From the UHGV virus genome UHGV-0115279: a DNA stretch of 12,037 bases; one strand, given 5' to 3'. This stretch comes from a virus. Both the position numbers and the translations under genes were made by a program. The notes below the pieces were generated by a model that was given only the letters and a program-made list of their open reading frames with translations, had not been told where the DNA came from and made no database searches. Of the stretch, positions 1-12,037 are shown one piece after another. Position 1 is the stretch's first letter. Every line of letters starts with the position of its first letter.

Positions 1-113
1 GCACGTTAAATCATATCAGGCGTAATACCACAACCCTTAAGTTAGCGCTTATGGGAGAGATCCCCGCCACTCTTCGTGTGTCAGGTATCCTCAATGCACC
101 CTTTCCTCTCCAA

Positions 114-140
114 ATAAAAAAGCTCCCGAAGGGGCTTTAA
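114..140 (-). terminator. putative rho-independent terminator at the end of the late structural gene block
   Basis: GC stem-loop (+ strand agctccc-gaa-ggggct, 121..136) flanked by an A-run (116..120) and T-run. On the minus-strand RNA this reads AAAGCCCC-UUCG-GGGAGCUUU followed by UUUUUUAUUU, starting 17 nt past the stop of the 158..667 CDS. Confidence 0.5.
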
Positions 141-157
141 AATACAAGGGATGACTC

Positions 158-667
158 TTAATCCCACTCAATCCAGTTGTAGACGATACGAAGTGACGGG
201 CGCACAGCGGCAGTCACATCTTCGGTACTAAAGTCGATTGCATCACTGTAGATTTTGCAGTCCAACATTTCAATTGTTGTAGCAGCTTTTGTCACAGCGT
301 TAACCCCGGAAGATTTGGATTCAGGGGTAGCAGCCATCGTGATATCAACATAGTCCTTCGCCGCAATGCGATCCTTAATGAACTGAAGAATATCGCCTTC
401 GATAGTCTCCACGCACTGGACCTGGATTTCCCCAGAGTTTCGAATTGGTCCGTGCTGGTTGAACTTCACACCATTCGGACCATAGTCCTCCACATTCTCT
501 CGAGTCATTTCAGGGATTTGCGACGTGCGAACCAGTACGCTGATATCTTCATGGCCTGCAAAAGTGAGCTGGAATTCAGAAGATACCAGTCGTTCGCCTT
601 TGACCGCGTTGGCAGTATAGCGGCCCTTAATAAATTTACGGTTTCCCTTAGTGTTATTGTGCCCCAT
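158..667 (-). CDS. small virion structural protein, possibly tail tube-like (T4 gp19-like pattern)
   Basis: 169-aa ORF with ATG start at 667..665 and an AAGGA Shine-Dalgarno 7-8 nt upstream; start lies 12 nt after the stop of the upstream gene. Size and the C-terminal pattern (..RIVYNWIEWD) resemble myovirus tail tube proteins as I recall T4 gp19 (..LALDYWE). Function is inference only. Confidence 0.55.
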   Translation of the reverse strand: MGHNNTKGNRKFIKGRYTANAVKGERLVSSEFQLTFAGHEDISVLVRTSQIPEMTRENVEDYGPNGVKFNQHGPIRNSGEIQVQCVETIEGDILQFIKDRIAAKDYVDITMAATPESKSSGVNAVTKAATTIEMLDCKIYSDAIDFSTEDVTAAVRPSLRIVYNWIEWD

Positions 668-678
668 ATAAAATCCTT

Positions 679-1260
679 TTACTGGAACGCCCGAACAATA
701 TCGGAGCTGTTATATATCGAAGAACCGGTCAACTGGAGGTTGACGGTGTTTTTCAGGAAATATCCATTACTGTCCCTTGGCGCATCGAGATCAAAACTTA
801 AGTCCTGGATGGCGACATCGGTGATGTTGATCCGGCGACCAATGTTTAGCGTCACGCGCTCCGGGATTCGACCACCAACATTGGCCGCTTTTAGTTCCGG
901 GCTAATCATGGCTGTCAACGCGGCGATAGCGCCTGAAACTTCAATGAATGGATTGTTCAAAGCAATGAAAGTTACAGGCAGCGTGAACGTCGGCGGTGTT
1001 CCCCCTTCCCAAACCATTAAGCTGTTCCAACGGGTCACCGACGTTGTTTCAGTACCAACCTGCGCAAAACCACTGAAAGCACCAGCAACAGACCCCATGG
1101 ACATACCGGTAAACGGCGCTTCCCAATTCTGGGCCATGTTCATTGCTGCCCCCTGGCTGATATATCCGGTAACCTGATACTGAGAGTTCGTTAAAGTAAC
1201 TTTCAGATATGGCGATACACCGTCAGCCTGGCTGTAAACCCCATAAGCTATAGGAGCCAT
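679..1260 (-). CDS. hypothetical phage morphogenetic/structural protein
   Basis: 193-aa ORF with ATG start at 1260..1258 and protein-like composition, sitting in the late operon between the acidic protein gene and the tube-like gene. No recognisable motif. Confidence 0.5.
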   Translation of the reverse strand: MAPIAYGVYSQADGVSPYLKVTLTNSQYQVTGYISQGAAMNMAQNWEAPFTGMSMGSVAGAFSGFAQVGTETTSVTRWNSLMVWEGGTPPTFTLPVTFIALNNPFIEVSGAIAALTAMISPELKAANVGGRIPERVTLNIGRRINITDVAIQDLSFDLDAPRDSNGYFLKNTVNLQLTGSSIYNSSDIVRAFQ

Positions 1261-1295
1261 TCAAGTTAAAGGCCGGAGTTCTCCGGCCTCCTCCT
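1261..1295 (-). promoter_or_regulatory. intergenic stem-loop placing a distal AGGAGG next to the start codon (possible structured ribosome binding site)
   Basis: Minus-strand RNA after the stop of the 271-aa gene reads AGGAGGAGG - GGCCGGAG AA CUCCGGCC - UUUAACUUGA - AUG. A perfect 8-bp inverted repeat (+ strand 1271..1288) separates the only SD-like sequence from the ATG of the 193-aa gene. Confidence 0.35.
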
Positions 1296-2111
1296 TTAGC
1301 CAAGGCGCTTACGGCGCAGTTTCATTGACTTTTTGCGGGCAAGTTTTGCCGCGCCGGTCTGGGCTTTTCGACGCGCTTTTTTCAGCGCCGATTTTTGAGC
1401 CGCAGTCAGACGTTTTTTACGCAGGCGTTTACGGATGAGTTTGATCTCACCGTTACGAACAACCTTCTTAAATGATTCAGTCAGCATTTCATCAGAAGTG
1501 CCAGCAACAACAAACGCCGCTTCCAGTTCGTCGCGGTCGTCGCTATCTAAACCAGCGATAGAGGCACCAACATCAGCAGCTGCGTCGTCGTCTTCATCGT
1601 CAGCCAGTGCTTCGATCAGGTCATCATCTACACCGCATGCTGCGAGGAAGTCAGCAACATTTGCCCATGCTTCGTTATAGGCATCGTCCTGTTCTTCTGT
1701 AACTTCGGAGTCGTCGTCATCAGAGATACCAGCGATAGCCTGAACGAAACCATCAAGGGAGTCGAAAGTCAGATCACCGCTATCAGCCCAGGCGAAAACG
1801 GCGTCGGCCGCATCACTCAACGCATTCTGCATAGCACTTCGATTTGCAGCTTCCAGAATCATCTGGTGCGCCTGTTCGACGGTCCATTCTTTACCGTCTT
1901 TCCCTTCCAGGATTTGCTCAGGAGCCGTGGCAGATGGAGCGTTATCGTTAGTCTGTGCCGCCGGTTCCGGATTATTATTAATAACCGGATCTGTTGTCGG
2001 TTCGGCGCTTGCTCGGGCAGACTCCATCAACTGCACAGGATCAGAGTTCAAAGCGAAACGAGACAGTCCATTCCCCAAAAATGCCCCGGATTGAAAAAAG
2101 TTTTTGCTCAT
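1296..2111 (-). CDS. acidic protein with extremely basic C-terminal tail (phage virion-associated or DNA-binding protein, function unknown)
   Basis: 271-aa ORF with ATG at 2111..2109 and an AAGGAAA Shine-Dalgarno 5 nt upstream. N-terminal ~200 aa is strongly D/E-rich (e.g. DDDDSEVTEEQDD, ADDEDDDAAAD); the last ~55 aa is K/R-rich (KRLRKKRLTAAQKSALKKARRKAQ..RRKRLG). Position corresponds to the gene after the sheath gene in the P1 late operon as I recall the map. Confidence 0.6.
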   Translation of the reverse strand: MSKNFFQSGAFLGNGLSRFALNSDPVQLMESARASAEPTTDPVINNNPEPAAQTNDNAPSATAPEQILEGKDGKEWTVEQAHQMILEAANRSAMQNALSDAADAVFAWADSGDLTFDSLDGFVQAIAGISDDDDSEVTEEQDDAYNEAWANVADFLAACGVDDDLIEALADDEDDDAAADVGASIAGLDSDDRDELEAAFVVAGTSDEMLTESFKKVVRNGEIKLIRKRLRKKRLTAAQKSALKKARRKAQTGAAKLARKKSMKLRRKRLG

Positions 2112-2120
2112 TGTATTTCC

Positions 2121-3710
2121 TTACTTAATAAGCAGCGGTACGCCCTGGATACGACGGGCTACGCCAGTCGGGCAGCAGGCCCAGACTACTTCCCATTTAT
2201 CGAATTCCGCCTGCGTAACTTTCAGCACATACGGTTCTGTACCGTCAGCATCAGGATCACGAGGAGCCACCAGAGCGCCGGAGGCGACAAAGCGATCCAA
2301 AAGTTTGGTCATCCCTTTAGTCAGGCCAGACTCAGTAATGCCGTCCGGGTTATGCTTCATCTGTCGGGCTAACTGGACAAAGAAACGGCTGATTGCGTTC
2401 ATCAGGGATGGGACGTGCTGGAAATGCAGATAGTTGTCCTGCGTGCAGCAAGTTAAAGCATCATCGATGATCATCTGGCCCGAAGTACCTACAGATACTT
2501 TATTGAGTCGGCCCTTGACCATAGCTTCTTCGTCCGGGGTGTCTTCAGGATACAGCGGCTGAAGTGATGCACGAGCAATGACGGCACGTTCTTCACCAGC
2601 CGGTGAGTAATGCCAACCGCCGACATCGGAGTTTTTCTTGACGCCACGAGCTATCGCCGCATACGCCGCGCCAGACAGACCGAAGATCACGCGGGATTGG
2701 GTCCATTTGTCTTTGCAGGAGAACGGGAAATGATAGACAGCACAGCTTACATAATCGGTACCAAGTAAACCGGTATCTTCAACAGCAGAGATCGCTTCCG
2801 TGTACGTCAATGTCGGTTTGACATCAAAGAAGCCATCAATCAGGCGATCAGAACAGATATTACCTAACGCAGTGATCGCCGCATTGTCATAGCAACCCAG
2901 GCCGAGAACAGCGGTGTACATGTACGGCGCATTGTTCAGCACTTTCACCGCACGCAGGTAAGCAGCAGTGGAAATGTTCGACTGATCGCCGTTGGTACCG
3001 CCAGTGAACGCCAGCGATTTTTTATTTGTTACTTTCGCCGTCGAAATCAGCTCTTCATTAACAACCGCGCGCAGATATTTAGAACGGGCTTCCAGAGCCG
3101 TAGGCAGATAACACAAGCGGCCCATGTCATCTTTCGCTTCTTCCGCCAAAGACACAGTGTGTGTCTCCAGGGTCGTTACCACACCGAGCGAAGTCGTCTG
3201 GGTCAGTTTTAAGAGGAAGCGTTCATTACCCGCGCTGTCCGCTGTTGCCGTTTCGATGGTTAACTCACGGGTAGGAGAAATACACGGATCACCATCATCA
3301 ACGTAGATAGCAAAGGCTTCGCCGCTATCAAGTTCAATTTCAGAACCGTATGGCAACGCACTGTAAGCCGGTTCGCCTGATTCATCGAACATAATAATCG
3401 GGAACTTCGCATCATCCGGAACAGCACGGACAACATAACCAGACGTTTGCTGAATAGCTTCGTACACATGGCGAATTGGTTCGAACTGTGAGCCGGAGGA
3501 CGGCTTCAGCGGTTCGCCGAGAACATCTTCGTAATTGGACTCAGTAACCGCAAGAACAGTAAACGGCTTGCCACGCGCAAATACGCCAATACCAGCCCAC
3601 AAGCTGCTATTTAATACAACACCGGTAGATAACGTCGCATCGGCATTGATCGGGCTAACAGCGACACCGGATGCATTACCTAATGACTGTTGAATTGAAT
3701 ATTGAGACAT
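2121..3710 (-). CDS. putative contractile tail sheath protein
   Basis: 529-aa ORF (~58 kDa) with ATG at 3710..3708 and an AGGGAAA SD. It lies immediately downstream of the major head gene, matching the P1 late operon order (head gene 23, sheath gene 22) as I recall it. Assignment is by size and synteny, not a verified motif. Confidence 0.55.
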   Translation of the reverse strand: MSQYSIQQSLGNASGVAVSPINADATLSTGVVLNSSLWAGIGVFARGKPFTVLAVTESNYEDVLGEPLKPSSGSQFEPIRHVYEAIQQTSGYVVRAVPDDAKFPIIMFDESGEPAYSALPYGSEIELDSGEAFAIYVDDGDPCISPTRELTIETATADSAGNERFLLKLTQTTSLGVVTTLETHTVSLAEEAKDDMGRLCYLPTALEARSKYLRAVVNEELISTAKVTNKKSLAFTGGTNGDQSNISTAAYLRAVKVLNNAPYMYTAVLGLGCYDNAAITALGNICSDRLIDGFFDVKPTLTYTEAISAVEDTGLLGTDYVSCAVYHFPFSCKDKWTQSRVIFGLSGAAYAAIARGVKKNSDVGGWHYSPAGEERAVIARASLQPLYPEDTPDEEAMVKGRLNKVSVGTSGQMIIDDALTCCTQDNYLHFQHVPSLMNAISRFFVQLARQMKHNPDGITESGLTKGMTKLLDRFVASGALVAPRDPDADGTEPYVLKVTQAEFDKWEVVWACCPTGVARRIQGVPLLIK

Positions 3711-3725
3711 AACTTTCCCTGTTAT

Positions 3726-3743
3726 GCGCCCCGCACGGGGCGC
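3726..3743 (-). promoter_or_regulatory. strong GC stem-loop in the head-sheath intergenic region
   Basis: Perfect inverted repeat gcgccccg/cggggcgc (7-bp GC stem with a 4-nt loop) between the head gene stop (3770) and the sheath gene start (3710). No U-tract follows, so it is not a classical intrinsic terminator; it may affect mRNA stability or processing. Confidence 0.4.
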
Positions 3744-3769
3744 TATGTTAAACGGAGAACTTCCCCTGA

Positions 3770-4951
3770 TTACTCAGAGTCACCGGCATCAATCGTGTCG
3801 CCGCTTATAAAGTTAAGCCCGCCTTTTTTGGCCATTGTCAGCGTTACACGAGTGAAGTAATCAGCGCCGTTGCGTGGGTGCATATCGTTGATAGCCGAAC
3901 CCCACAGCGTGGTACGGTTGACCAGCGCCGGAGTGGTCGGATGCTGGAACGGGATGGCCGGGACAGCATCACCAGTCACGAAGCCTGCTTTACCCGGATT
4001 TTCATCACGGACGTAGCACAGCACATCCATCGAGCTGAACTGAATGTTCTCTGTCGTTAAGTTCTTACAAATACCAGCAGGTACTTCGTACACTTTCACG
4101 TTACCGAACAGGGTACCGATGTAGTGAACATACGGAGTCTGGATATAGTCTTCGGCTGACTGGAAGAAATCCTTCGGCAACTGTTTGAAGAAAGATGCTG
4201 CATCAGCACCAGCAAACATCCCCATCGCACCAGAAGATTTAACGCGCTCAATAATGTCGCGATATACAGTCTGGAATTTGCCACGAATGATGGTTGCCCA
4301 TACATCAAAGGACTGGTTAACCGGCAGAGCGATGTCAAAGGTGTCGGTCGCAAGAGTACGCCAGATCATGATGCGAAGACGCAGCATATCCTGTTCATGA
4401 GACAGGTATTCCTTCAGGGTGCGGAACTGTAGGGAACCCAGGTCCAGACCAAATTCACGCTGTGCTTCATACGCCGCCTGTACCGTGTGCTCAGCCGCGA
4501 TAACGAACTGACTTGGGAACAGGGTGTATTTCTTCATTTCGTGGTTGATCAGCGGGATCAGCTCAGGAGCGGCTTCAATATTGATTTCCGTCTCAATTGC
4601 GATCTCAGTGCCTTTATCCGGCGCTTTGGAGAACGACAGGGCAATCTGACCAATGTTGTAGTTCAGAGAGCAGGTAACAGTGATTTGCTCACCAGCAGCA
4701 TTAGTAAACGAGTGAAGTAGGCTGCCGGAACCGTTATCAACAACAGACTTAATACGGTTAACGTAGATGTTAGTGCGACCTTTTCGGATTGGTACATTCT
4801 GGCCTTCGAAGTCTTCCATCTTGAAGGTTGCGGTTTTGCTGGTGCCATCGGAGCTTGCCAGCAGCATAAGAACCAAAAGATGAACCTGCCACGTTAAAGA
4901 CTTCATAGATGTCGGACTGGTCACGCGTAACCGGAATGAAGGTACACGCAT
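3770..4951 (-). CDS. major head (capsid) protein, C-terminal ~365 codons; the upstream part appears to continue in another frame
   Basis: 393-aa ORF with no convincing RBS at its annotated ATG (4951) and a non-protein-like N-terminal ~30 aa, while the sequence from ..SSDGTSKTATFKMEDFEGQ onward looks like genuine protein. It overlaps the 4770..5432 ORF by 182 nt in a different frame. Confidence 0.6.
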   Translation of the reverse strand: MRVPSFRLRVTSPTSMKSLTWQVHLLVLMLLASSDGTSKTATFKMEDFEGQNVPIRKGRTNIYVNRIKSVVDNGSGSLLHSFTNAAGEQITVTCSLNYNIGQIALSFSKAPDKGTEIAIETEINIEAAPELIPLINHEMKKYTLFPSQFVIAAEHTVQAAYEAQREFGLDLGSLQFRTLKEYLSHEQDMLRLRIMIWRTLATDTFDIALPVNQSFDVWATIIRGKFQTVYRDIIERVKSSGAMGMFAGADAASFFKQLPKDFFQSAEDYIQTPYVHYIGTLFGNVKVYEVPAGICKNLTTENIQFSSMDVLCYVRDENPGKAGFVTGDAVPAIPFQHPTTPALVNRTTLWGSAINDMHPRNGADYFTRVTLTMAKKGGLNFISGDTIDAGDSE

Positions 4952-5432
4952 CAGCGGTAGCTGCCCCCAACTGAACAGGCAGGATCATCGCGAGGAATAA
5001 AGGCAGACGCATAACACCGTCAGAAACGCTCATCATCTCTGCTGCGACGGATTCCAGCATCGCTTTATTAGTGGCATCCATGCTATTGCGGGTGGACTCA
5101 ATCAGGCAGTTTTCCAGCGTCTGGTGGCAGGAGGCCAGAATTTCCGGACGCGGCATAGATTTATGTGCTGCGGCGTAGTCAGCCAGTGCACTTGCCCACG
5201 CTGTAGCGATTTGAGCGGTGGCATTATCAGAGATACCCGCAAAAACCGGGTCTTTACGTGCAGCTTCAAGGATAGATGCGGCACGCGCGGCATCATCTTT
5301 AATGAATTGGTTATCAGTACCGAACTGCGCAGTGCTTGCCCAGCCAAGCACAGCTTTAGAGCGTTTTGCGATATCTGCAATACGATTCTGGTATTCGCGT
5401 AAGTTACTCAATTTACTCTTCCTTAAACACAA
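4770..5432 (-). CDS. major head (capsid) protein, N-terminal portion (Ala-rich helical delta/scaffold-like domain), frame-shifted relative to 3770..4951
   Basis: The 220-aa ORF in the track begins at a TTG. The likely true start is the in-frame TTG at 5411..5409, preceded by AAGGAAG with 6-nt spacing. The N-terminal part is Ala-rich and protein-like; the last ~28 aa (KLRWHQQNRNLQDGRLRRPECTNPKRSH) look like out-of-frame read-through. Confidence 0.55.
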   Translation of the reverse strand: MCLRKSKLSNLREYQNRIADIAKRSKAVLGWASTAQFGTDNQFIKDDAARAASILEAARKDPVFAGISDNATAQIATAWASALADYAAAHKSMPRPEILASCHQTLENCLIESTRNSMDATNKAMLESVAAEMMSVSDGVMRLPLFLAMILPVQLGAATADACTFIPVTRDQSDIYEVFNVAGSSFGSYAAGKLRWHQQNRNLQDGRLRRPECTNPKRSH

Positions 5433-5454
5433 GGCACTTGTGTGAATCCCTTTT

Positions 5455-5495
5455 CGGAAGAGATTTTATTGAAAGTCACTTGTTGACTTTCTCGT
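5455..5495 (-). promoter_or_regulatory. putative phage late promoter for the head-sheath operon (palindromic activator site plus -10)
   Basis: A 21-bp palindrome with 8-bp arms, GAAAGTCA-ACAAG-TGACTTTC (5471..5491), is followed 2 nt downstream on the minus strand by TAAAAT (5468..5463). This puts the palindrome centre near -25, with no -35 hexamer, about 45 nt upstream of the head gene start. The architecture matches what I recall of P1 late promoters (Lpa-dependent). Confidence 0.4.
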
Positions 5496-5547
5496 GACAA
5501 GCAATTTTTTTATTTTTTTCGGGAGTAGGGGAGGAAGGTAAAATCCA

Positions 5548-5634
5548 AGGTGAAATCGTGGCGATTTCACCTTGAAATTTTAGAGGGATTTACTTTAAAA
5601 ACAGTAGGTTAATAGTGAAATTTGAATGGCGAAA
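5548..5634 (-). other. parS: parS partition site (plasmid centromere) with heptamer box A and hexamer box B motifs flanking an AT-rich IHF-type spacer
   Basis: Minus-strand reading directly after the parB stop: TTTAAACTTTCGCCATTCAAATTTCACTATTAACCTACTGTTTTTAAAGTAAATCCCTCTAAAATTTCAAGGTGAAATCGCCACGATTTCAC. It contains TCGCCA (box B) twice and ATTTCAC/GTGAAAT (box A) in both orientations, matching the phage P1 parS layout as I recall it. Confidence 0.85.
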
Positions 5635-5636
5635 GT

Positions 5637-6638
5637 TTAAGGCTTCGGCTTTTTATCGAGGCTCTTTCTAAGGATATGCCCAATCATCCTGTCGAGTTCT
5701 TCCTGTAGCTCTTTTGAAAGTCGATTAAACTCATAAGAAAATGCACGGCCTTTCACGCGCTTCCTTGCAAAGCGATCCTTGTCCTCAAATTTCCATAATT
5801 CAGTAACTACGGACTTATCTTTAGAACCTTTATCCGTGAGTAGTGAGGCTTCCTTTGTTATCAAGCGCAGGATTTTATTTTTAACTTCATCTTCGGCCAT
5901 TTCTTCAATGGATAAGATGTCGTTTATTTCCGGGGATATGTTTTGAATAAGCTGATCAAACTCTAAATTCTTGTTCCCCATTTCGTCGCCAACAGCACAA
6001 AGCGTTTTGTAGTCCGAAAAGGTTAATTCCGACTGCACAGGGAAAAGGGCGACTAATTCTTCCGGAGCACTCGCTGCCTGGAGAGCACGCGTGACCTTCG
6101 CCTGAGACAGCCCTTCTTTGGCTGCAATATCCTTCTGACTCATCCCATCATTTTTCATTCGCATCAAACGCAGACCTATTTCTCGAATGCTGTGCTGCAA
6201 TGCTGTCTGAACGTCTTTCGCTAAATTTTGCGCTTCCTGAACGCTGATCTCCTGGTCCGTGACTAAAACCCGCAACCCTACGTTCTCTAAGATGGCAGAA
6301 GCTCGACGCCGGGAACCATCCAAAATTTCAATTTTCCCTGTAGCCCGTCTAACACCTATTGCAGGGTAAAATTGCTGATGCTTAATAGTGCTTCGGATAC
6401 TTTTTAATGATTTTGGCGTAAGAGATGTCTGGTCACGCCCGTTGTTATGCTGATCAACAAAGGTATCGCTTTCTACCTGGTTCGGAGGTATTACCTCTTC
6501 AATAAATGTGGCCTGGCGACCAGTTGATAACTTGAATACCTGCTCGACTCGATCGCCAGAGGCTGAAGAACTATCAAATCCGCTTAATATTGAAGGATTA
6601 AGGGTTCGCCCAATTGTTGGTCTGTTTTTCTTTGACAT
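5637..6638 (-). CDS. parB: ParB partition protein (centromere-binding, P1 type)
   Basis: 333-aa ORF with ATG at 6638..6636 and a GAGGAG SD that overlaps the parA stop codon. N-terminus MSKKNRPTIGRTLNPSILSGFD.. and the arginine patch ..ILDGSRRRASAIL.. are typical of ParB, and it sits between parA and parS. Length and sequence match P1 ParB as far as I can recall. Confidence 0.9.
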   Translation of the reverse strand: MSKKNRPTIGRTLNPSILSGFDSSSASGDRVEQVFKLSTGRQATFIEEVIPPNQVESDTFVDQHNNGRDQTSLTPKSLKSIRSTIKHQQFYPAIGVRRATGKIEILDGSRRRASAILENVGLRVLVTDQEISVQEAQNLAKDVQTALQHSIREIGLRLMRMKNDGMSQKDIAAKEGLSQAKVTRALQAASAPEELVALFPVQSELTFSDYKTLCAVGDEMGNKNLEFDQLIQNISPEINDILSIEEMAEDEVKNKILRLITKEASLLTDKGSKDKSVVTELWKFEDKDRFARKRVKGRAFSYEFNRLSKELQEELDRMIGHILRKSLDKKPKP

Positions 6639-6654
6639 GGGGGTTTCTTACTCC

Positions 6655-7851
6655 TCAGTTAGATCTGATAAATTCAATACGGTCAAAAACTGCTTTAGCA
6701 AAATCTTCCGCAGCAATTCGCGCGTTCTTCAATGCATCAGCACTACCAACATACGTTGCCGGGTTAGCTGAAATAACAGTGTCAAAAGACTCGCCGCAGC
6801 GTTCAAAACCGTCAAGGCGAGGGAGGACAACATCAAGCATATCCCCACCGAACACTTCTTTAGCCAGGCTATGGCAATACTTATGGTCTGCCTTGTTACT
6901 CAACTTGGACATAAAACCAATGTTAGTTGCAAGCTGACACTCGCAGCCTTCATCCGAAATGAGTTTCACCAACTCAGGAAGGCGGGCAACGTATTTAAGC
7001 GATGAGTGGAAATCAACCGTTGCAGGCGGCAGAGGTGTAAACAGTATATTGGCCGAGGCCAAAGCATTTTTCAGGAAGGCGTCAAGGTGAGGACCACTAT
7101 CAACGAGGATAAAGTCATAATCGCTCTTCAGCTTATCAATCACATTTTCTTTCAGGACTGCATGGATGTTCTGACCCGGTAGATGCTCATTGCACAGCTC
7201 TCTCCAATCGGATGCAATAAAGGCATCGTCAATCGACGCAGGCATAACGTCAACCCCAGGTACAACAGAAGGAACAATAAACTCCTCTAACAGCTCTTCA
7301 CGGCTTACATTCTGCAACATAGCCTGTGCAGATGTTGCGTTTACGATACCAATAGAGTGTTTATGGCTTAAAAACATCGTTGCTGAAGATTGCGGATCAA
7401 GGTCAATAACCAGAATCCTTAAATCTTCCATCAGAAGATGAGGATGAGCACGCATTGCATGCGCCAGAGAAACCGTCGATACAGTTTTTGACACACCGCC
7501 TTTAAGATTGGAGATGAAAATCACATACGCTTCGCTGTAGCGATCCCGGTATTTTGGCACTCCGCGATGTTCATATATGTCAATGATGTTCTGAATTGAC
7601 ATCGCATATTTCATTGAAGAGCCAGCAGGGCGTTTATCGAAAACATAACCCTTTTCTTCCATTTCACTTACGGCATAGTCAACGTTCGCACGAGTCAGTA
7701 GAGGCAATTTTGCCAGTGCCGCTTTCGCATAGACCTGGTAAAACTCGTTCGCGTGTAGCTCATCCTTTTGCAACTGTACTTGTTCAGTCAGAACATTGAG
7801 CATTCTATTTGCTCTTTGAGCAACCTTGTGAAGCTGGCTGGAATCACTCAT
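6655..7851 (-). CDS. parA: ParA partition ATPase (type Ia, with N-terminal autoregulatory DNA-binding extension)
   Basis: 398-aa ORF with ATG at 7851..7849 and an AAGGA SD. It has the deviant Walker A motif NLKGGVSKTVSTV and a ~100-aa N-terminal extension, and lies immediately upstream of parB. Length and sequence match P1 ParA as I recall it. Confidence 0.9.
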   Translation of the reverse strand: MSDSSQLHKVAQRANRMLNVLTEQVQLQKDELHANEFYQVYAKAALAKLPLLTRANVDYAVSEMEEKGYVFDKRPAGSSMKYAMSIQNIIDIYEHRGVPKYRDRYSEAYVIFISNLKGGVSKTVSTVSLAHAMRAHPHLLMEDLRILVIDLDPQSSATMFLSHKHSIGIVNATSAQAMLQNVSREELLEEFIVPSVVPGVDVMPASIDDAFIASDWRELCNEHLPGQNIHAVLKENVIDKLKSDYDFILVDSGPHLDAFLKNALASANILFTPLPPATVDFHSSLKYVARLPELVKLISDEGCECQLATNIGFMSKLSNKADHKYCHSLAKEVFGGDMLDVVLPRLDGFERCGESFDTVISANPATYVGSADALKNARIAAEDFAKAVFDRIEFIRSN

Positions 7852-7990
7852 CGAAAGCCATCCTTTATGCTGTATTTTTGAATTTAATTAAAAATGCTGC
7901 ATAAAATAATAATGTATGCGTAGATGCTTGTACATAGCATTCTCTGCATGTTTGGTTCATTTTGCACGATTGAGAGTTACAAGGAGGGCA
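7852..7990 (-). promoter_or_regulatory. par operon promoter/operator region
   Basis: AT-rich 140-bp leader between the upstream terminator and the parA ATG, containing imperfect palindromes (e.g. ATGCTTGTACATAGCAT at 7924..7940; tgcata..tatgcg at 7879..7899). These are plausible sites for ParA autorepression; exact -35/-10 hexamers not assigned. Confidence 0.5.
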
Positions 7991-8014
7991 CAAAAAAGCC
8001 CCGTTCAGGGGCAT
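7991..8014 (-). terminator. rho-independent terminator of the 269-aa gene, insulating the par promoter
   Basis: Minus-strand RNA has GCCCC-UGAAC-GGGGC followed by UUUUUUGUG, beginning 6 nt after the TAA stop of the 8020..8829 CDS. Confidence 0.7.
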
Positions 8015-8019
8015 CAGTG

Positions 8020-8829
8020 TTATTTGCTAAGAGCAGCGAATAATCGTTCGAAATCGATAGTATCTATAGCACGCGTAAGCGCCGGAAGTTCAGCCTCAAA
8101 GTACCCGTGTCGATCGTAAAAGAAGGGACCGAAGAGCGAGGCATGTTGGATTCTACTTCGCCCCAGCCCGGACACACAGTTAAGCCCATTACCGGCTAAA
8201 AGGCTAAAAAACTTCTCTGGATTATCGTGGTAAAGCTGGGAATCAATGGTGGCGGTTAACTCTTCCATAGGGAAGCACACCCGCCCTGTATCCCAGGGAT
8301 ATTTAGTCCGAAGCATAAACATTGCTTTCAGCAATTCACATTGAGCGCGGATCGCGTCCGGTTCATAGCCAGATATGGAGACATAAGCCACGTCCCTCAT
8401 TCCTGCGTCATCTTTGAAAGTCACGATAGAAGTAACATCCAGCTCTTTTTCGAAAGAGCAAGCAGCATCTACTGGACGCTGAAGTAAATCATTCGACTTA
8501 ATGCGCTCGAGAATCCCTCCCCACATATCATTTAGATATTCGATATGAGCCAAAACCTTATCAAGACACTCTCGTGTAAACCATTCAGTATGCCCGCCAC
8601 CGACGCTTTTCTCCCACGGCGCATTCCAGGGGAAAAAGGTTGCGTGTAAAGCCCGCTCAAGATTAACCATTGCCAAACGCGTACCACGATAGACCCGTGA
8701 AAGCGCAAAATCGGGACTCACTTGTAGCCCTTTAAACCGTGCCAATGGACCACATGAAATGCCGATTTTAAAAGTATCTCCGTTCTCTGGCACCAGAACG
8801 TAGAGGTAGTGTTGTTTCTCTTCTTGCAT
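8020..8829 (-). CDS. GIY-YIG / T5orf172-like domain protein with uncharacterised C-terminal domain (candidate accessory, defence or anti-defence gene)
   Basis: 269-aa ORF with ATG at 8829..8827, weak SD, TAA stop and its own intrinsic terminator. The N-terminal ~90 aa (HYLYVLVPENGDTFKIGIS...R...LERALHATFF...GGGHTEWF) follows the Y-x-Y-[VI]-L ... KIG-x-[ST] ... R ... E..LH ... TEWF pattern of the GIY-YIG-related T5orf172 (MUG113-like) family. Residues ~100-269 have no motif I recognise. Confidence 0.75.
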   Translation of the reverse strand: MQEEKQHYLYVLVPENGDTFKIGISCGPLARFKGLQVSPDFALSRVYRGTRLAMVNLERALHATFFPWNAPWEKSVGGGHTEWFTRECLDKVLAHIEYLNDMWGGILERIKSNDLLQRPVDAACSFEKELDVTSIVTFKDDAGMRDVAYVSISGYEPDAIRAQCELLKAMFMLRTKYPWDTGRVCFPMEELTATIDSQLYHDNPEKFFSLLAGNGLNCVSGLGRSRIQHASLFGPFFYDRHGYFEAELPALTRAIDTIDFERLFAALSK

Positions 8830-8863
8830 ATCAATACCACTGCTTGATGAGAACCGCGCAAAT

Positions 8864-9120
8864 GTTGACTATGCGCGAAGGTTAATGTGAATAGTTGACT
8901 ATGCGCGATGTGACTACAGTCAAAAGTTGACTGTAGTCGATTTAACTCCACCAAAGATCGACTATGTAAGATATTGTCGGGAGAAACGTTGACTATACGC
9001 GATGAAATGCCCCTAAAAGCCATCTCAATAGCGACTTGCAGAATATTGACGCCAGCAAAAATCCACCAGCGTCAACGAATGTCGCCTATAGTCAACTTCT
9101 CGCTATCGCATATAGTCAAT
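8864..9120. repeat. incA: incA-like iteron array downstream of repA (copy-number control locus)
   Basis: Multiple copies of a ~14-bp core GTTGACTATGCGCG: direct at 8864..8877, 8894..8907 and 8988..9001; inverted at 9083..9096 and 9107..9120; degenerate copies at 8958..8966 and about 9046..9076. A head-to-head pair forms a perfect 12-bp inverted repeat (8912..8923 / 8927..8938). The last copy abuts the repA stop codon. Confidence 0.8.
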
Positions 9121-9121
9121 A

Positions 9122-10006
9122 TTATGGATTGCGCTTATGGATCTGGAAGCCGATTTTCCTGCCGTTTTTTATCTCTGAAAATTTAAGATATTCAATAGCT
9201 TCCAAATCTTTCATGGCTTTTCTGATAACGCTATTTTGCACGCTAACGGATGATTTGAGATTAAGCCTCGCTCTAAGGCGCTCAATGCTGACAGGTGCCG
9301 GGTTGGCGGGTAGAGCCTCAAAGAATGTATACAGTACCTTGGCCGTCTCTTTGCGCCCTAGTTTATCCAGCATCTTCAGCTTCAGGATTCGCTTATAGTC
9401 AACATAGTAAAGTTCAGATAGCTGTTTCTGCGGCTGGATCTCGATAACATCAAGCTCGGTATTCAGGCTGCTATATGCCAACAAGTTGACGTTAATGTTA
9501 TTGAGATGACCTTTTGCCGCCGGGAAGCGGAATTTGACAACTGTCTGCTGAATGCGTGTCAGAGAGTCATCAATACTTTTACGGAACGCCTTTGAAAGGC
9601 GCTTACGTGGATAGCCGCATCGATCGGCAAACTCGGAGAATGGCAGGGTGATTATGCCGTCATCATCAGGTGCGTAGTCAAACAACGCGGAGGTTATGCC
9701 CACCCACACCTTAAAATCAGTATCCATATCCAGGCGTGGACCATGAATTTCAATTCCCTCATAGCCTTCCTGCTCAACAATTTTGAGGCTTGATAGTTCT
9801 TCAGTTGCGTTCGTTGTGTTTGTTGTAACTGACGATCCGCGACGTAGCGCCACATTGGTAGATTTTAAGGTTGGCACAAACACACCTAAGCGCAACAAAG
9901 CGATGGGTTGTATAGTGCTGTTGTTATTGGGCTTCAGGCTGTGGATTTCTCCTGTATTTCCTGCAACTTCTTCAACGCTAAGGAAGCCTTTACTTTCTTC
10001 CGGCAT
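9122..10006 (-). CDS. repA: RepA iteron-binding replication initiator (RepA/RepE family)
   Basis: ORF 9122..10042 in the track starts at a TTG; the most plausible start is the ATG at 10006..10004 (MPEESKGF..), with GGAG 8-12 nt upstream, giving 295 aa. Blocks IQPIALLRLGVFVP, IHGPRLDMDTDFKVWVGI, FSEFADRCGYPRKRL and LYTFFEALPANPAPVSIERLRARL resemble the P1 RepA / F RepE initiator family, and the gene is flanked by iteron arrays on both sides. Confidence 0.85.
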   Translation of the reverse strand: MPEESKGFLSVEEVAGNTGEIHSLKPNNNSTIQPIALLRLGVFVPTLKSTNVALRRGSSVTTNTTNATEELSSLKIVEQEGYEGIEIHGPRLDMDTDFKVWVGITSALFDYAPDDDGIITLPFSEFADRCGYPRKRLSKAFRKSIDDSLTRIQQTVVKFRFPAAKGHLNNINVNLLAYSSLNTELDVIEIQPQKQLSELYYVDYKRILKLKMLDKLGRKETAKVLYTFFEALPANPAPVSIERLRARLNLKSSVSVQNSVIRKAMKDLEAIEYLKFSEIKNGRKIGFQIHKRNP

Positions 10007-10050
10007 CACGGTTTCTCCATGTGTGGCGCGGCCTGACGTCAATTTGGATG

Positions 10051-10300
10051 GCTGTTATCAACAGCTGTGAATATTCAGACTCTAAAATCGCTTACAGTCA
10101 ATGTTTCTGTCGCGTATAGTCAACAATAAATCGCGTGCAGTCAACAATAAATCGTGCACAGTCAACATAAAATCGCGTATAGTCAATGTTGATCCCATTT
10201 CAGGCCAGTAATGACGCGGCTTACAGCGATCCGGGATCTTCTTTGGATCTTCCTAGGTTCTCTTTAGGATCTGTTTATTGGATCTATGCTGTGGATAAGT
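10051..10300. other. oriR: oriR-like plasmid origin: DnaA boxes, clustered GATC sites and five iterons
   Basis: Five iterons at 21-bp spacing (about 10089, 10111, 10132, 10153, 10174; unit CGCGTATAGTCAACA + AT-rich spacer). Six GATC sites within 95 bp (10191, 10228, 10235, 10246, 10268, 10281; four as GGATCT). A perfect DnaA box TGTGGATAA sits at 10290..10298 and an 8/9 DnaA box TTATCAACA at 10055..10063, inside the palindrome GCTGTT-ATC-AACAGC (10051..10065). Located directly upstream of repA. Confidence 0.8.
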
Positions 10301-10304
10301 TGAA

Positions 10305-10330
10305 TAAACCGGCCAACAAAGCCGGTTGGA
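10305..10330 (-). terminator. putative terminator between the small-gene block and oriR
   Basis: Minus-strand RNA has AACCGGC-UUUGUUG-GCCGGUU followed by UAUUCAACUU, 12 nt after the stop of the 10342..10734 CDS. The U-tract is only moderate. Confidence 0.4.
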
Positions 10331-10341
10331 AGGAAGTCATA

Positions 10342-10734
10342 TTATTCTACGCTTTCGATAAGAAGACCATGTTCATAACATTTAAGCTCATCGCCTTCGT
10401 ACAGGAATTGGTATCCAATACCACCATTTTCATGGACATTAGGGAATAACTCATAACTCACTGAAGAGCAAATCACACCAATGCAGCGATCAACGCCTTC
10501 TCGTTCTTCAGTGCTGAAAAAATCCTCTTCGGTAAGGACATGAGTACATTGCTCATCAGCATAGGTCGGAAATACATGCTCGATGCAATCCGGGTGTTTT
10601 AAACCAAGCTGATCGGCAAGCTCGAAAGCATGACGGTATTGTTCAGATCCTGGCTTGCCAACAGTGATGTGCTCAATTTTGTAGATTGAAGTTGCTTTGT
10701 TGATAGTTTGCTTTACTGTTACTTTATCAGACAT
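10342..10734 (-). CDS. hypothetical Cys/His-containing small protein
   Basis: 130-aa ORF with ATG at 10734..10732 and an AAGGGA SD. Contains spaced Cys/His residues (HPDC, EQCTH, CIGVIC, KCYEH) that could bind metal. Position corresponds to the first gene after oriR in the P1 map (upfA) as I recall it. Confidence 0.6.
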   Translation of the reverse strand: MSDKVTVKQTINKATSIYKIEHITVGKPGSEQYRHAFELADQLGLKHPDCIEHVFPTYADEQCTHVLTEEDFFSTEEREGVDRCIGVICSSVSYELFPNVHENGGIGYQFLYEGDELKCYEHGLLIESVE

Positions 10735-10745
10735 AAAAATCCCTT

Positions 10746-11078
10746 TTAGTTACCTCTGATAGCGCGGTTGTAATCATTAACGTTGCGATTCTTCCTGTTA
10801 ATCCCCATCAGCATCGTTTCTGTATCGAGGATATACGCTGGCAGATCATCAAAATATTCACTGCTAAACTCTGGCATCCTGCACATAAATGCACTTTTGG
10901 GGGCAGGGTGGTTAACCTTTGTCGGCGTCGGCGTTAAATTCGCTGATCGACTGCCGGAGCAACCGCTGAGTGTCAGCAGGAATGCGCTGGCGAACATTAC
11001 CCGCCGCAACCAGTTGTTTCTGAACTTCAGCTTTTCGTTCCATTTGCCTGTCAGCATATTTGGCTTGTTCTGATTCAT
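10746..11078 (-). CDS. lipoprotein precursor; o-spanin-like (or exclusion lipoprotein)
   Basis: 110-aa ORF with ATG at 11078..11076 and an AGGAAG SD 8 nt upstream. It has a lipobox L-S-G-C preceded by the hydrophobic stretch VMFASAFLLT and K/R residues, and a Pro/Thr-rich mature region (TPTPTKVNHPAPK) with one Cys. Its start lies inside the 3' part of the upstream membrane-protein gene in another frame (167-nt overlap). The signal peptide is unusually long from this ATG, so the true start may be an internal Met. Confidence 0.6.
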   Translation of the reverse strand: MNQNKPNMLTGKWNEKLKFRNNWLRRVMFASAFLLTLSGCSGSRSANLTPTPTKVNHPAPKSAFMCRMPEFSSEYFDDLPAYILDTETMLMGINRKNRNVNDYNRAIRGN

Positions 11079-11334
11079 TTTTCACTTCCTGGCTGTGAAA
11101 ATGTTGCTCTGCTTTGTTCATCGTCTCAATGGTCTGGTTAAGATCCATTATTGACTTATCACGTTCCTTAACAGCCTGATCAAGACTGCCAATTTTCTCC
11201 ATGGCTTGCTTTAGCTGATGACGTTCCCATGCAAACCCAGCACCAACAAGTGCGCAAATCAGAACAAGAACACCAGTAGCAGCAAGTTTCTCCTTCAAAG
11301 ACAAAGCTGTTTTTAACGTAGAAAAGAATGACAT
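10912..11334 (-). CDS. membrane-anchored coiled-coil protein; i-spanin-like
   Basis: ORF 10912..11361 in the track starts at a TTG; the likely start is the ATG at 11334..11332, preceded by AGGAGG at 6-nt spacing, giving 140 aa. It has one N-terminal transmembrane segment (AATGVLVLICALVGAGFAW) followed by a charged, helical, coiled-coil-like region rich in Q/E/K/R. Confidence 0.6.
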   Translation of the reverse strand: MSFFSTLKTALSLKEKLAATGVLVLICALVGAGFAWERHQLKQAMEKIGSLDQAVKERDKSIMDLNQTIETMNKAEQHFHSQEVKNESEQAKYADRQMERKAEVQKQLVAAGNVRQRIPADTQRLLRQSISEFNADADKG

Positions 11335-11373
11335 GTCTTCCTCCTGAAGAAAAATTATCAATGAAGTCCTTTG

Positions 11374-11910
11374 TTACTGTGCCGCTTTGTTTAATTCATC
11401 AAGAACAGAATCAGGAACCAAAGCGGCAACTGCGCTGGCTGTGCTGACCTTATTTGCTGATGCTTCCGCAAGCGCGGTACCGATAGCATGGTTATAAGCA
11501 GTTATGGCTACGTTGGCGCTTTCATTCGCTCGTTCATACTGCTGTTGTAACGCAGTTGTGGGCGTTGTTGTCTGGTTGAAAACAACCCCAAACTGTTCAG
11601 TTGCTACTTTCAGAGATTCAATTTGCTCTTCTGTTAGTGCTGGTGGGGGAGTGGCAGTGCCGCCGCCTGAACCAGAGCCTGACGAGCTTCCTGAGCCAGT
11701 GTTAAGGGTCTGGTTAATCTCCCCCATAGCAGCGACTAAACTTGATGTATTAAGCGCGTTAACAGCGTCCTCAAGCGATTTAGTAATATTCACATCACCA
11801 ATGGCAATAGAGATCGGCAGTTCTGAAACTTCTCGCTCATTAGCACGGCAGTAAACATCCCAACCAATATCGAGTTGAAGCAGCATTGACAGATCTGCAT
11901 AACCAGCCAA
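11374..11910 (-). CDS. hypothetical two-domain protein with Gly/Ser-rich linker
   Basis: 178-aa ORF in the track starts at a TTG (11910); the first in-frame ATG is at 11886..11884 and neither has a strong SD, so the start is uncertain. It has a central flexible linker (TGSGSSSGSGSGGGTATPPP) between an N-terminal and an Ala-rich C-terminal region. Confidence 0.5.
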   Translation of the reverse strand: MAGYADLSMLLQLDIGWDVYCRANEREVSELPISIAIGDVNITKSLEDAVNALNTSSLVAAMGEINQTLNTGSGSSSGSGSGGGTATPPPALTEEQIESLKVATEQFGVVFNQTTTPTTALQQQYERANESANVAITAYNHAIGTALAEASANKVSTASAVAALVPDSVLDELNKAAQ

Positions 11911-12037
11911 CAGGTCCGCGTGCTTAGTTGCCAGTTCTCCAATGTTCGTTAAGTCGGTTGTGGTTGTTCTTATCGTTGAAACGGTGATGCTGCCAACTTA
12001 CTGATTTAGTGTATGATGGTGTTTTTGAGGTTCTCCA

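Follow-up and report, generated by a model that had tools for sequence, protein, structure and literature searches.

Across this locus, a partition system resembling that of phage P1 stands beside an initiator gene and iterons that differ from those of P1. The question is which plasmid replicon maintains the element, and how this replicon came to be combined with a P1-type backbone. The window, that is, the whole stretch of 12,037 nucleotides analysed from the virus genome UHGV-0115279, is colinear with the phage P1 region from bplB to upfB, and all genes are on the minus strand. Its genes are arranged as bplB, pmgG, 21, 22, 23, parS-parB-parA, a gene for a 269-aa protein, an iteron array, repA, further iterons, a GATC/DnaA segment, upfA, mlp, ppfA and upfB. 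With high confidence, the window represents the part of a P1-like phage-plasmid that ensures its maintenance as a plasmid; the replicon is of the p0111 type, and its cassette stands in place of the IncY cassette of P1. A p0111 cassette on a P1 backbone is already known and not a new mosaic; it has been described from 2014-2022 on.

Module-wise identity to P1 and P7

Identities of the modules were determined by sensitive blastn against P1 (NC_005856) and P7. The window divides as follows.

116-4866: structural genes; 97.4% identical to P1 (blastn)
4858-7953: 5' end of gene 23, parS, parB, parA and Ppar; 99.2% identical to P1 (blastn), P7 parA aligning at 64.6% only
7954-10203: exchanged cassette with the GIY-YIG gene (269 aa), incA-like array, repA and origin iterons; blastn alignment to P1 or P7 limited to 59 nt within repA (76%)
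10204-11982: GATC/DnaA segment, upfA, mlp, ppfA and upfB; 93.5% identical to P1 overall (blastn)
10313..10329, minus strand: hairpin at the upfA end, where 94-100% identity to P1 and P7 resumes

The first-pass annotation had predicted that identity to P1 would differ between the replication and partition modules. This pattern was found, and a uniformly high identity to P1 was not seen. On the left, the loss of P1 homology takes only a few bases (7951-7953) and lies about 17-20 bp upstream of the Ppar -35 hexamer. On the right, a column-by-column alignment showed about 75-77% identity to P1 and P7 at 10204-10310 and 94-100% from about 10311. The left edge of the cassette is sharp and the right edge, near 10310, is softer. 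The replication module had been placed at 8864-10300; this interval covers only part of the exchanged block, which comprises 7954-10203 and includes the 269-aa gene. The P1 counterpart of the cassette (L001, 9405-10895) contains incA, repA and the incC iterons.

Partition system

The partition module consists of the following features.

5550..5632, minus strand: parS centromere (incB), P1 type; 4 mismatches in 83 nt to P1, none in ParB box A or B, and 34 to P7
5637..6638, minus strand: parB, 333 aa; ParB 99.7% identical to P1 and 43% to P7
6655..7851, minus strand: parA, 398 aa; ParA 99.7% identical to P1 and 58% to P7
7906..7934, minus strand: Ppar, the par operon promoter, kept from the P1-type backbone; found by a consensus scan and colinear with the annotated P1 Ppar

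The nucleotide identity of the par region to P1 is 99.0-99.2%. Together with the two proteins at 99.7% and the identical parS boxes, this bears out the close match of parA, parB and parS to P1 that had been noted at first pass. All ParB boxes of parS are identical to those of P1, and the ParABS system is of the P1 type, not the P7 type. With a centromere of this type, partition-mediated (incB) incompatibility with P1 should persist.

Replicon type and distribution

The first-pass annotation had pointed to replicon typing, and this assigns the cassette to p0111, not to IncY. The repA gene shares 98.6% of its nucleotides with repA of pO111_2 (NC_013370.1) over 885/885 nt, and the block 7955-10310 is 98.3% identical to this plasmid. 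We take pO111_2 (AP010962 = NC_013370.1) to be the PlasmidFinder reference for p0111, with a usual threshold of about 95%. On the side of IncY, P1-type iterons are absent, RepA identity is 42% and the nucleotide alignment is the 59 nt at 76%. The rep region is 98.3-100% identical to those of JL22, SJ46, RCS47 and phi456, with JL22 at 98.3%; JL22 was typed as p0111 by its authors. These p0111-type elements, including pO111_2, share the order parB-parA-GIY-YIG-incA-repA-oriR-upfA and the same iterons with the window. Differences are limited to copy-specific damage; the GIY-YIG gene is split in pO111_2 and intact here.

Published work describes the replacement of repA (IncY) by repA' (p0111) and an unknown gene (PMC9603915), and the RepA of SJ46 as 42% identical to P1 RepA (PMC5241659). 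Among 119 P1-like phage-plasmids, Pfeifer and Rocha assigned 63 to p0111 and 52 to IncY (10.1101/2023.08.08.552325, preprint). In PLSDB, the p0111 block was present in 404 plasmids, nearly full length in 391 of them; these plasmids are mostly about 90-100 kb and non-mobilizable. The IncY block was present in 375 records. By genus, PLSDB records with the p0111 block are from Escherichia (375), Salmonella (23), Shigella (4) and Klebsiella (2). Those with the IncY block are from Escherichia (324), Salmonella (29), Klebsiella (10), Shigella (6), Enterobacter (4), Citrobacter (1) and Cronobacter (1). The swap had been expected to change the host range; no such shift is visible in the PLSDB genera, where both replicons occur mostly in Escherichia.

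The name p0111 comes from typing and does not stand for a classical Inc group. We found no published experiments on the p0111 replicon, incompatibility data included; among the papers searched, a survey was the only one to mention both p0111 and iterons. A MOB-suite label 'IncHI1B' in PLSDB was rejected as evidence of membership. It is a nearest-cluster label, and initiators from outside the phage-plasmids are at most 53% identical.

The split into IncY and p0111 is routinely used to detect and type P1-like phage-plasmids carrying ESBL, mcr-1 and toxin genes. It also shows that phage-plasmids swap maintenance modules, probably avoiding incompatibility with resident relatives. The window itself adds nothing new to this picture. 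Modest additions are the exact cassette boundaries, with a break just upstream of Ppar and a host-factor half of oriR that is diverged yet homologous, the presence of a p0111-related cassette in D6-like phage-plasmids, and a GIY-YIG orphan confined to p0111-type P1-like elements.

The initiator RepA

The initiator gene was located as follows.

9122-10006, minus strand: repA, p0111-type initiator of the Rep_3 family, 294 aa; ATG start behind a GGAGAA ribosome-binding site

The list of open reading frames gives repA as 9122-10042, from an upstream TTG. The protein has the winged-helix domains of Rep_3 initiators (WH1 and WH2): the Pfam domain Rep3_C was detected with 27.3 bits (cutoff 21.1). Rep3_N reached 22.0 bits, marginally below its cutoff of 22.4, and the score of P1 RepA for this domain is likewise marginal. 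The homology to P1 RepA is full-length, with 42% identity over 272 aa (E = 9e-71), and not restricted to blocks of similarity as the first-pass annotation had stated. P1 and P7 RepA are 100% identical to each other. The inducible phage-plasmid RCS47 has a RepA 100% identical to the one in the window.

A search of 5.8 billion proteins revealed an isolated p0111 RepA clade. It has members at 99, 94, 90 and 85% identity, followed by a gap without intermediates down to a Proteus protein at 53%. The next relatives are RepFIB-type initiators with at most 49% identity (44-49%), and P1 RepA is more distant at 42%. The RepFIB-type replicons (IncFIB and relatives on large enterobacterial plasmids) have Rep_3/RepB-family initiators of similar length, whereas the p0111 clade was seen here only on P1-like and D6-like phage-plasmids. 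A scan of GTDB species representatives with RepA yielded one Escherichia contig and no donor outside the phage-plasmids. Neither the protein nor the GTDB searches provided an ordinary plasmid as donor of the cassette. A PDB sequence search with RepA gave nothing significant.

Iterons and origin

When up to 3 mismatches are allowed, the core GTTGACTATGCGCG is present 11 times in the window. In shuffled sequences, matches averaged 1.02 and never exceeded 5; 0 of 200 shuffles reached 11. With the same tolerance, the iteron of P1, the 19-mer GATGTGTGCTGGAGGGAAA, had 0 hits on both strands of the window, in line with the earlier statement that the P1 iteron is a different 19-bp sequence. The following features surround and include repA.

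8864..9120: incA-like array downstream of repA; iterons on the plus strand at 8864, 8894, 8926 and 8988 and on the minus strand at 9083 and 9107
9390..9403, minus strand: iteron-like site GTTGACTATAAGCG inside repA; identical at the equivalent position in L005, L007 and L009
10055..10063, plus strand: DnaA-box-like 9-mer TTATCAACA with 1 mismatch, between the iterons and the repA start
10089..10187, minus strand: five direct origin iterons (incC equivalent) starting at 10089, 10111, 10132, 10153 and 10174; spacing 22/21/21/21 bp
10191..10310: host-factor part of oriR with six GATC sites and a perfect DnaA box; aligns to the Dam-site/DnaA-box region of the P1/P7 oriR at about 75-77%

The initiator is flanked by iterons as described at first pass, five in the origin with a spacing close to 21 bp and six in mixed orientation in the incA-like array. 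The layout of the latter is also present in the comparison loci L005, L007 and L009. The site inside repA may simply reflect conserved coding sequence. The GATC sites are at 10191, 10228, 10235, 10246, 10268 and 10281. The perfect DnaA box TTATCCACA occupies 10290-10298 on the minus strand.

The architecture is that of the IncY replicons of P1 and P7. The initiators belong to the same family, and both types have five origin iterons at 22/21/21/21 bp, the spacing of the annotated P1 incC iterons 10-14. In both, the second array abuts the repA stop codon; the last incA-like iteron of the window (9107) ends 1 nt from it, and in P1 it is iteron 9. The GATC cluster and the DnaA box are distal to repA in both, and both replicons occupy the same genome position, from parA to upfA. 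The sequences and the numbers of sites differ. RepA is 42% identical, the iteron core is GTTGACTATGCGCG here and GATGTGTGCTGGAGGGAAA in P1 and P7, and the downstream iterons number 6 here and 9 in P1. The window has one distal DnaA box, whereas P1 has two in tandem at this place. The GIY-YIG gene between incA and Ppar is an extra gene in comparison to IncY.

A block with these features could also be a non-functional or accessory remnant of a second replicon, the element being kept by another origin. Decay elsewhere in this copy, namely a capsid gene frameshift and an IS1 insertion, would fit such a remnant. However, repA is intact and its product is 100% identical to RCS47 RepA. All iterons, GATC sites and the DnaA box are present, and the window has no other plasmid replicon. 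Hundreds of plasmids of about 95 kb also have the block where P1 has its plasmid replicon. A remnant is thus extremely improbable.

Replication control and incompatibility

The window has the features of Rep_3 iteron replicons of the P1 and RepFIB-like kind: the initiator domains, direct iterons together with a second array, DnaA boxes and a GATC cluster. From homology and the identical architecture, an iteron-controlled theta replication of the P1 kind is most likely. RepA monomers would bind to the five origin iterons spaced by 21 bp. DnaA, acting at the flanking box, and the Dam-methylated GATC repeats would join RepA in opening the origin for theta replication. The downstream array of mixed orientation may limit the copy number by titrating RepA and by pairing with the origin (handcuffing). 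In a consensus scan, the coding strand of the origin iterons showed no sigma-70 promoter that could serve repA, and none was convincing by eye; each iteron, though, contains TTGACT, a 5/6 match to the -35 hexamer. Because the scan gave no repA promoter, autoregulation of repA as in P1 is an analogy only.

Judged by their sequences, RepA and the iterons have co-diverged from those of P1. The two replicons should then not cross-react and would represent separate replication-incompatibility types. A changed replication incompatibility, with compatibility towards IncY P1, is a sound expectation from the sequences.

Exchange of the cassette

The first-pass annotation had proposed that the replication module was replaced on a P1 backbone. 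The exchange of a cassette is well founded on the sharp module boundaries, but the data do not give the direction that the word replacement implies. Among P1-like elements, the p0111 replicon is at least as common as IncY (404 versus 375 PLSDB records), and a divergent lineage carries the p0111-type pair. The cassette was very probably exchanged by homologous recombination in the flanks. The left flank is just upstream of Ppar; on the right, recombination would fall within the host-factor half of oriR and upfA or beside them.

The divergent lineage is represented by a P1-like contig (L005) with ParA 89%, ParB 67% and gp22 82% identical to the window. Its RepA is of the p0111 type (84%), its iterons are those of the window, and the corresponding place is occupied by a GIY-YIG homolog with 44% identity. 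The pair of RepA and GIY-YIG protein is therefore old within the P1-like group.

A related replicon is present in D6-like phage-plasmids (NZ_CP085065.1, MOB-suite rep_cluster_2164) from E. coli and E. marmotae. Its RepA is 85% identical, and it shares the iteron core, a 5 + (2 + 4) layout and the intragenic site. It is located between pmgB and tub, on elements with a tail sheath 79.5% identical to that of D6 and 41.5% to that of P1. These elements have ParM, not an adjacent ParAB, and are without the GIY-YIG gene. Phage D6 itself has an unrelated Rep between pmgB and tub. The unit of iterons, repA and iterons, with RepA at 84-85%, is found on L005 and, elsewhere in the genome, on D6-like phage-plasmids; it therefore moves as a unit.

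The alternative to an exchange is the gradual divergence of one ancestral replicon in place. The RepA proteins (42% identical amino acids), the iteron layout and the GATC/DnaA segment (about 75% identical nucleotides) are homologous to those of P1 and agree with such a divergence; they indicate that the p0111 and P1 replicons share an ancestor. The boundaries speak against it. At 7951-7953, only a few bases separate 99% identity from sequence that cannot be aligned; by about 10311 identity is back at 94-100%, and flanks of such similarity cannot share a divergence time with a protein of 42% identity. The same cassette is also present on other backbones. Divergence in place has next to no probability and is effectively refuted by the sharp boundaries.

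The GIY-YIG gene

Cassette exchange brings up the role of the one gene in the block that has no counterpart in IncY. Two features belong to it.

7998..8012, minus strand: hairpin resembling a terminator, with a T run behind it, directly downstream of the GIY-YIG gene and inside the non-homologous block
8020..8829, minus strand: 269-aa protein of the T5orf172/GIY-YIG superfamily whose C-terminal half is specific to its lineage; Pfam domain T5orf172 (GIY-YIG clan) at residues 8-85, E = 6.9e-6

The gene lies within the non-homologous block, between the incA-like array and Ppar. The protein corresponds to phrog_2876, and its RefSeq name is 'GIY-YIG nuclease family protein'. In plasmids, the gene is always found with this replicon: a coverage of 80% or more is reached by the block in 391 records and by the gene in 391 as well. 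Its plasmid copies occur only at identities of at least 90%. The protein has one distant full-length homolog with 44% identical amino acids, and Y8, Y10, G23, R31 and E82 are invariant between both. Word-indexed searches retrieved an identical set of 5 proteins whether the single sequence or a profile was used. An exhaustive HMMER search added only relatives of the N-terminal domain, matching approximately residues 1-120, and the C-terminal half had no relatives outside its clade among 1.84 billion representatives. Sequence searches in PADLOC, NCBIfam and PDB gave no match. An AlphaFold2 model, based on a 3-sequence alignment, had a mean pLDDT of 50 and a pTM of 0.43 and was too poor to judge the fold.

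The gene may be a passenger of the cassette or, improbably, encode a free-standing homing-type endonuclease that drives the exchange of the replicon. Such an enzyme would cut near the par-incA junction of P1-like genomes lacking the gene, and recombinational repair would drag in the linked p0111 replicon; this course of events is equally improbable. Several observations point in this direction. The N-terminal GIY-YIG-superfamily domain is conserved, with the five residues invariant at 44% identity, and the C-terminal half is confined to the lineage, a feature shared with modular homing enzymes. With conserved modules on either side, the gene is free-standing and has its own terminator. In P1-like elements, the divergent lineage included, it is strictly linked to the p0111 replicon. 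The neighbouring par flank is unusually P1-like, with 99.2% identity compared to 97.4% further left. Against homing, pO111_2 and several clusters have a frameshifted or split version of the gene, although it is intact here, and its splitting in pO111_2 shows that it is dispensable. The related replicon of the D6-like elements moved without it. Moreover, T5orf172 proteins are not established homing enzymes, and neither the model (pLDDT of 50) nor PADLOC and PDB lent support. That the gene encodes an active homing-type (marker-exclusion) nuclease against IncY-type P1, spreading p0111 through the P1-like population, is speculation and slightly less probable still. If true, a homing nuclease would explain two very different replicons circulating on near-identical backbones.

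Copy-specific changes

The left end of the window (1-55) was considered as the end of an insertion sequence and rejected. It is the known variable region beside hokD, also present in pEC1515-2 and pO111_2. In comparison to its p0111 relatives, this copy lacks 65 bp of gene 23, and an IS1 end is located at 11983. It carries a frameshifted capsid gene and an IS1 insertion.

Replication region

A replicon related to p0111 is also present in D6-like phage-plasmids of E. coli and E. marmotae, with RepA at 85% identity and with the same iteron core and layout as p0111. It is located between pmgB and tub:

L007, D6-like phage-plasmid: 4710-6112
L012, D6-like phage-plasmid (NZ_CP085065.1): ~77.4-78.9 kb

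Phage D6 itself differs, carrying an unrelated Rep at this position. The D6-like elements and the P1-like elements of the p0111 type may be incompatible in replication.

An iteron-like 14-mer, GTTGACTATAAGCG, lies within repA, where it falls in the codons for YVDYKR:

Window: 9390-9403
L005, divergent P1-like contig: 7612-7625
L007: 5604-5617
L009, comparison sequence: 1137-1150

It is free of differences among the four lineages, although their RepA proteins share only 84-90% identity. Either RepA acts at the 14-mer or the site is just conserved coding sequence; both are possible.

Gene inactivation

The GIY-YIG gene, which encodes 269 amino acids, is split into two ORFs in pO111_2 (L016 8497-9306), and the sizeable protein clusters P0002 and P0003 consist of shortened products of this gene. 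The gene is therefore frequently inactivated.

The major capsid gene, gene 23, lacks 65 bp in comparison to P1, RCS47, pO111_2 and the comparison sequence L004. CCAGCA microhomologies are located on either side of the deletion, which causes a frameshift in the gene:

3770-4951: one ORF of the gene
4770-5432: the other ORF
4850-4866: deletion site

The element is probably a defective prophage that persists solely as a plasmid.

Partition proteins of RCS47

The partition proteins of RCS47 (NC_042128.1 64083-66297) share 99.7% (ParA) and 100% (ParB) identical amino acids with P1, and only 58% and 43% with P7. This is the reverse of a statement quoted in PMC5241659, according to which both proteins are identical to those of P7 and distant from P1.

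Window ends

At the right end, upfB is broken by an IS1 terminal sequence starting at 11983 (11983-12037). In pEC1515-2, upfB is about 180 bp longer than the window copy and the IS1 is located elsewhere. Within upfB, the 100 bp of 11547-11646 share 76% identity with P1 and P7, versus 90-100% on either side; their product is a Gly/Ser/Pro-rich, linker-like segment. At the left end, no alignment to P1 is seen for positions 1-115; P1 has pmgF at that place. They match a variable region that P1-like plasmids such as pEC1515-2 and pO111_2 have beside hokD, known as variable 'region 5' (PMC9603915).
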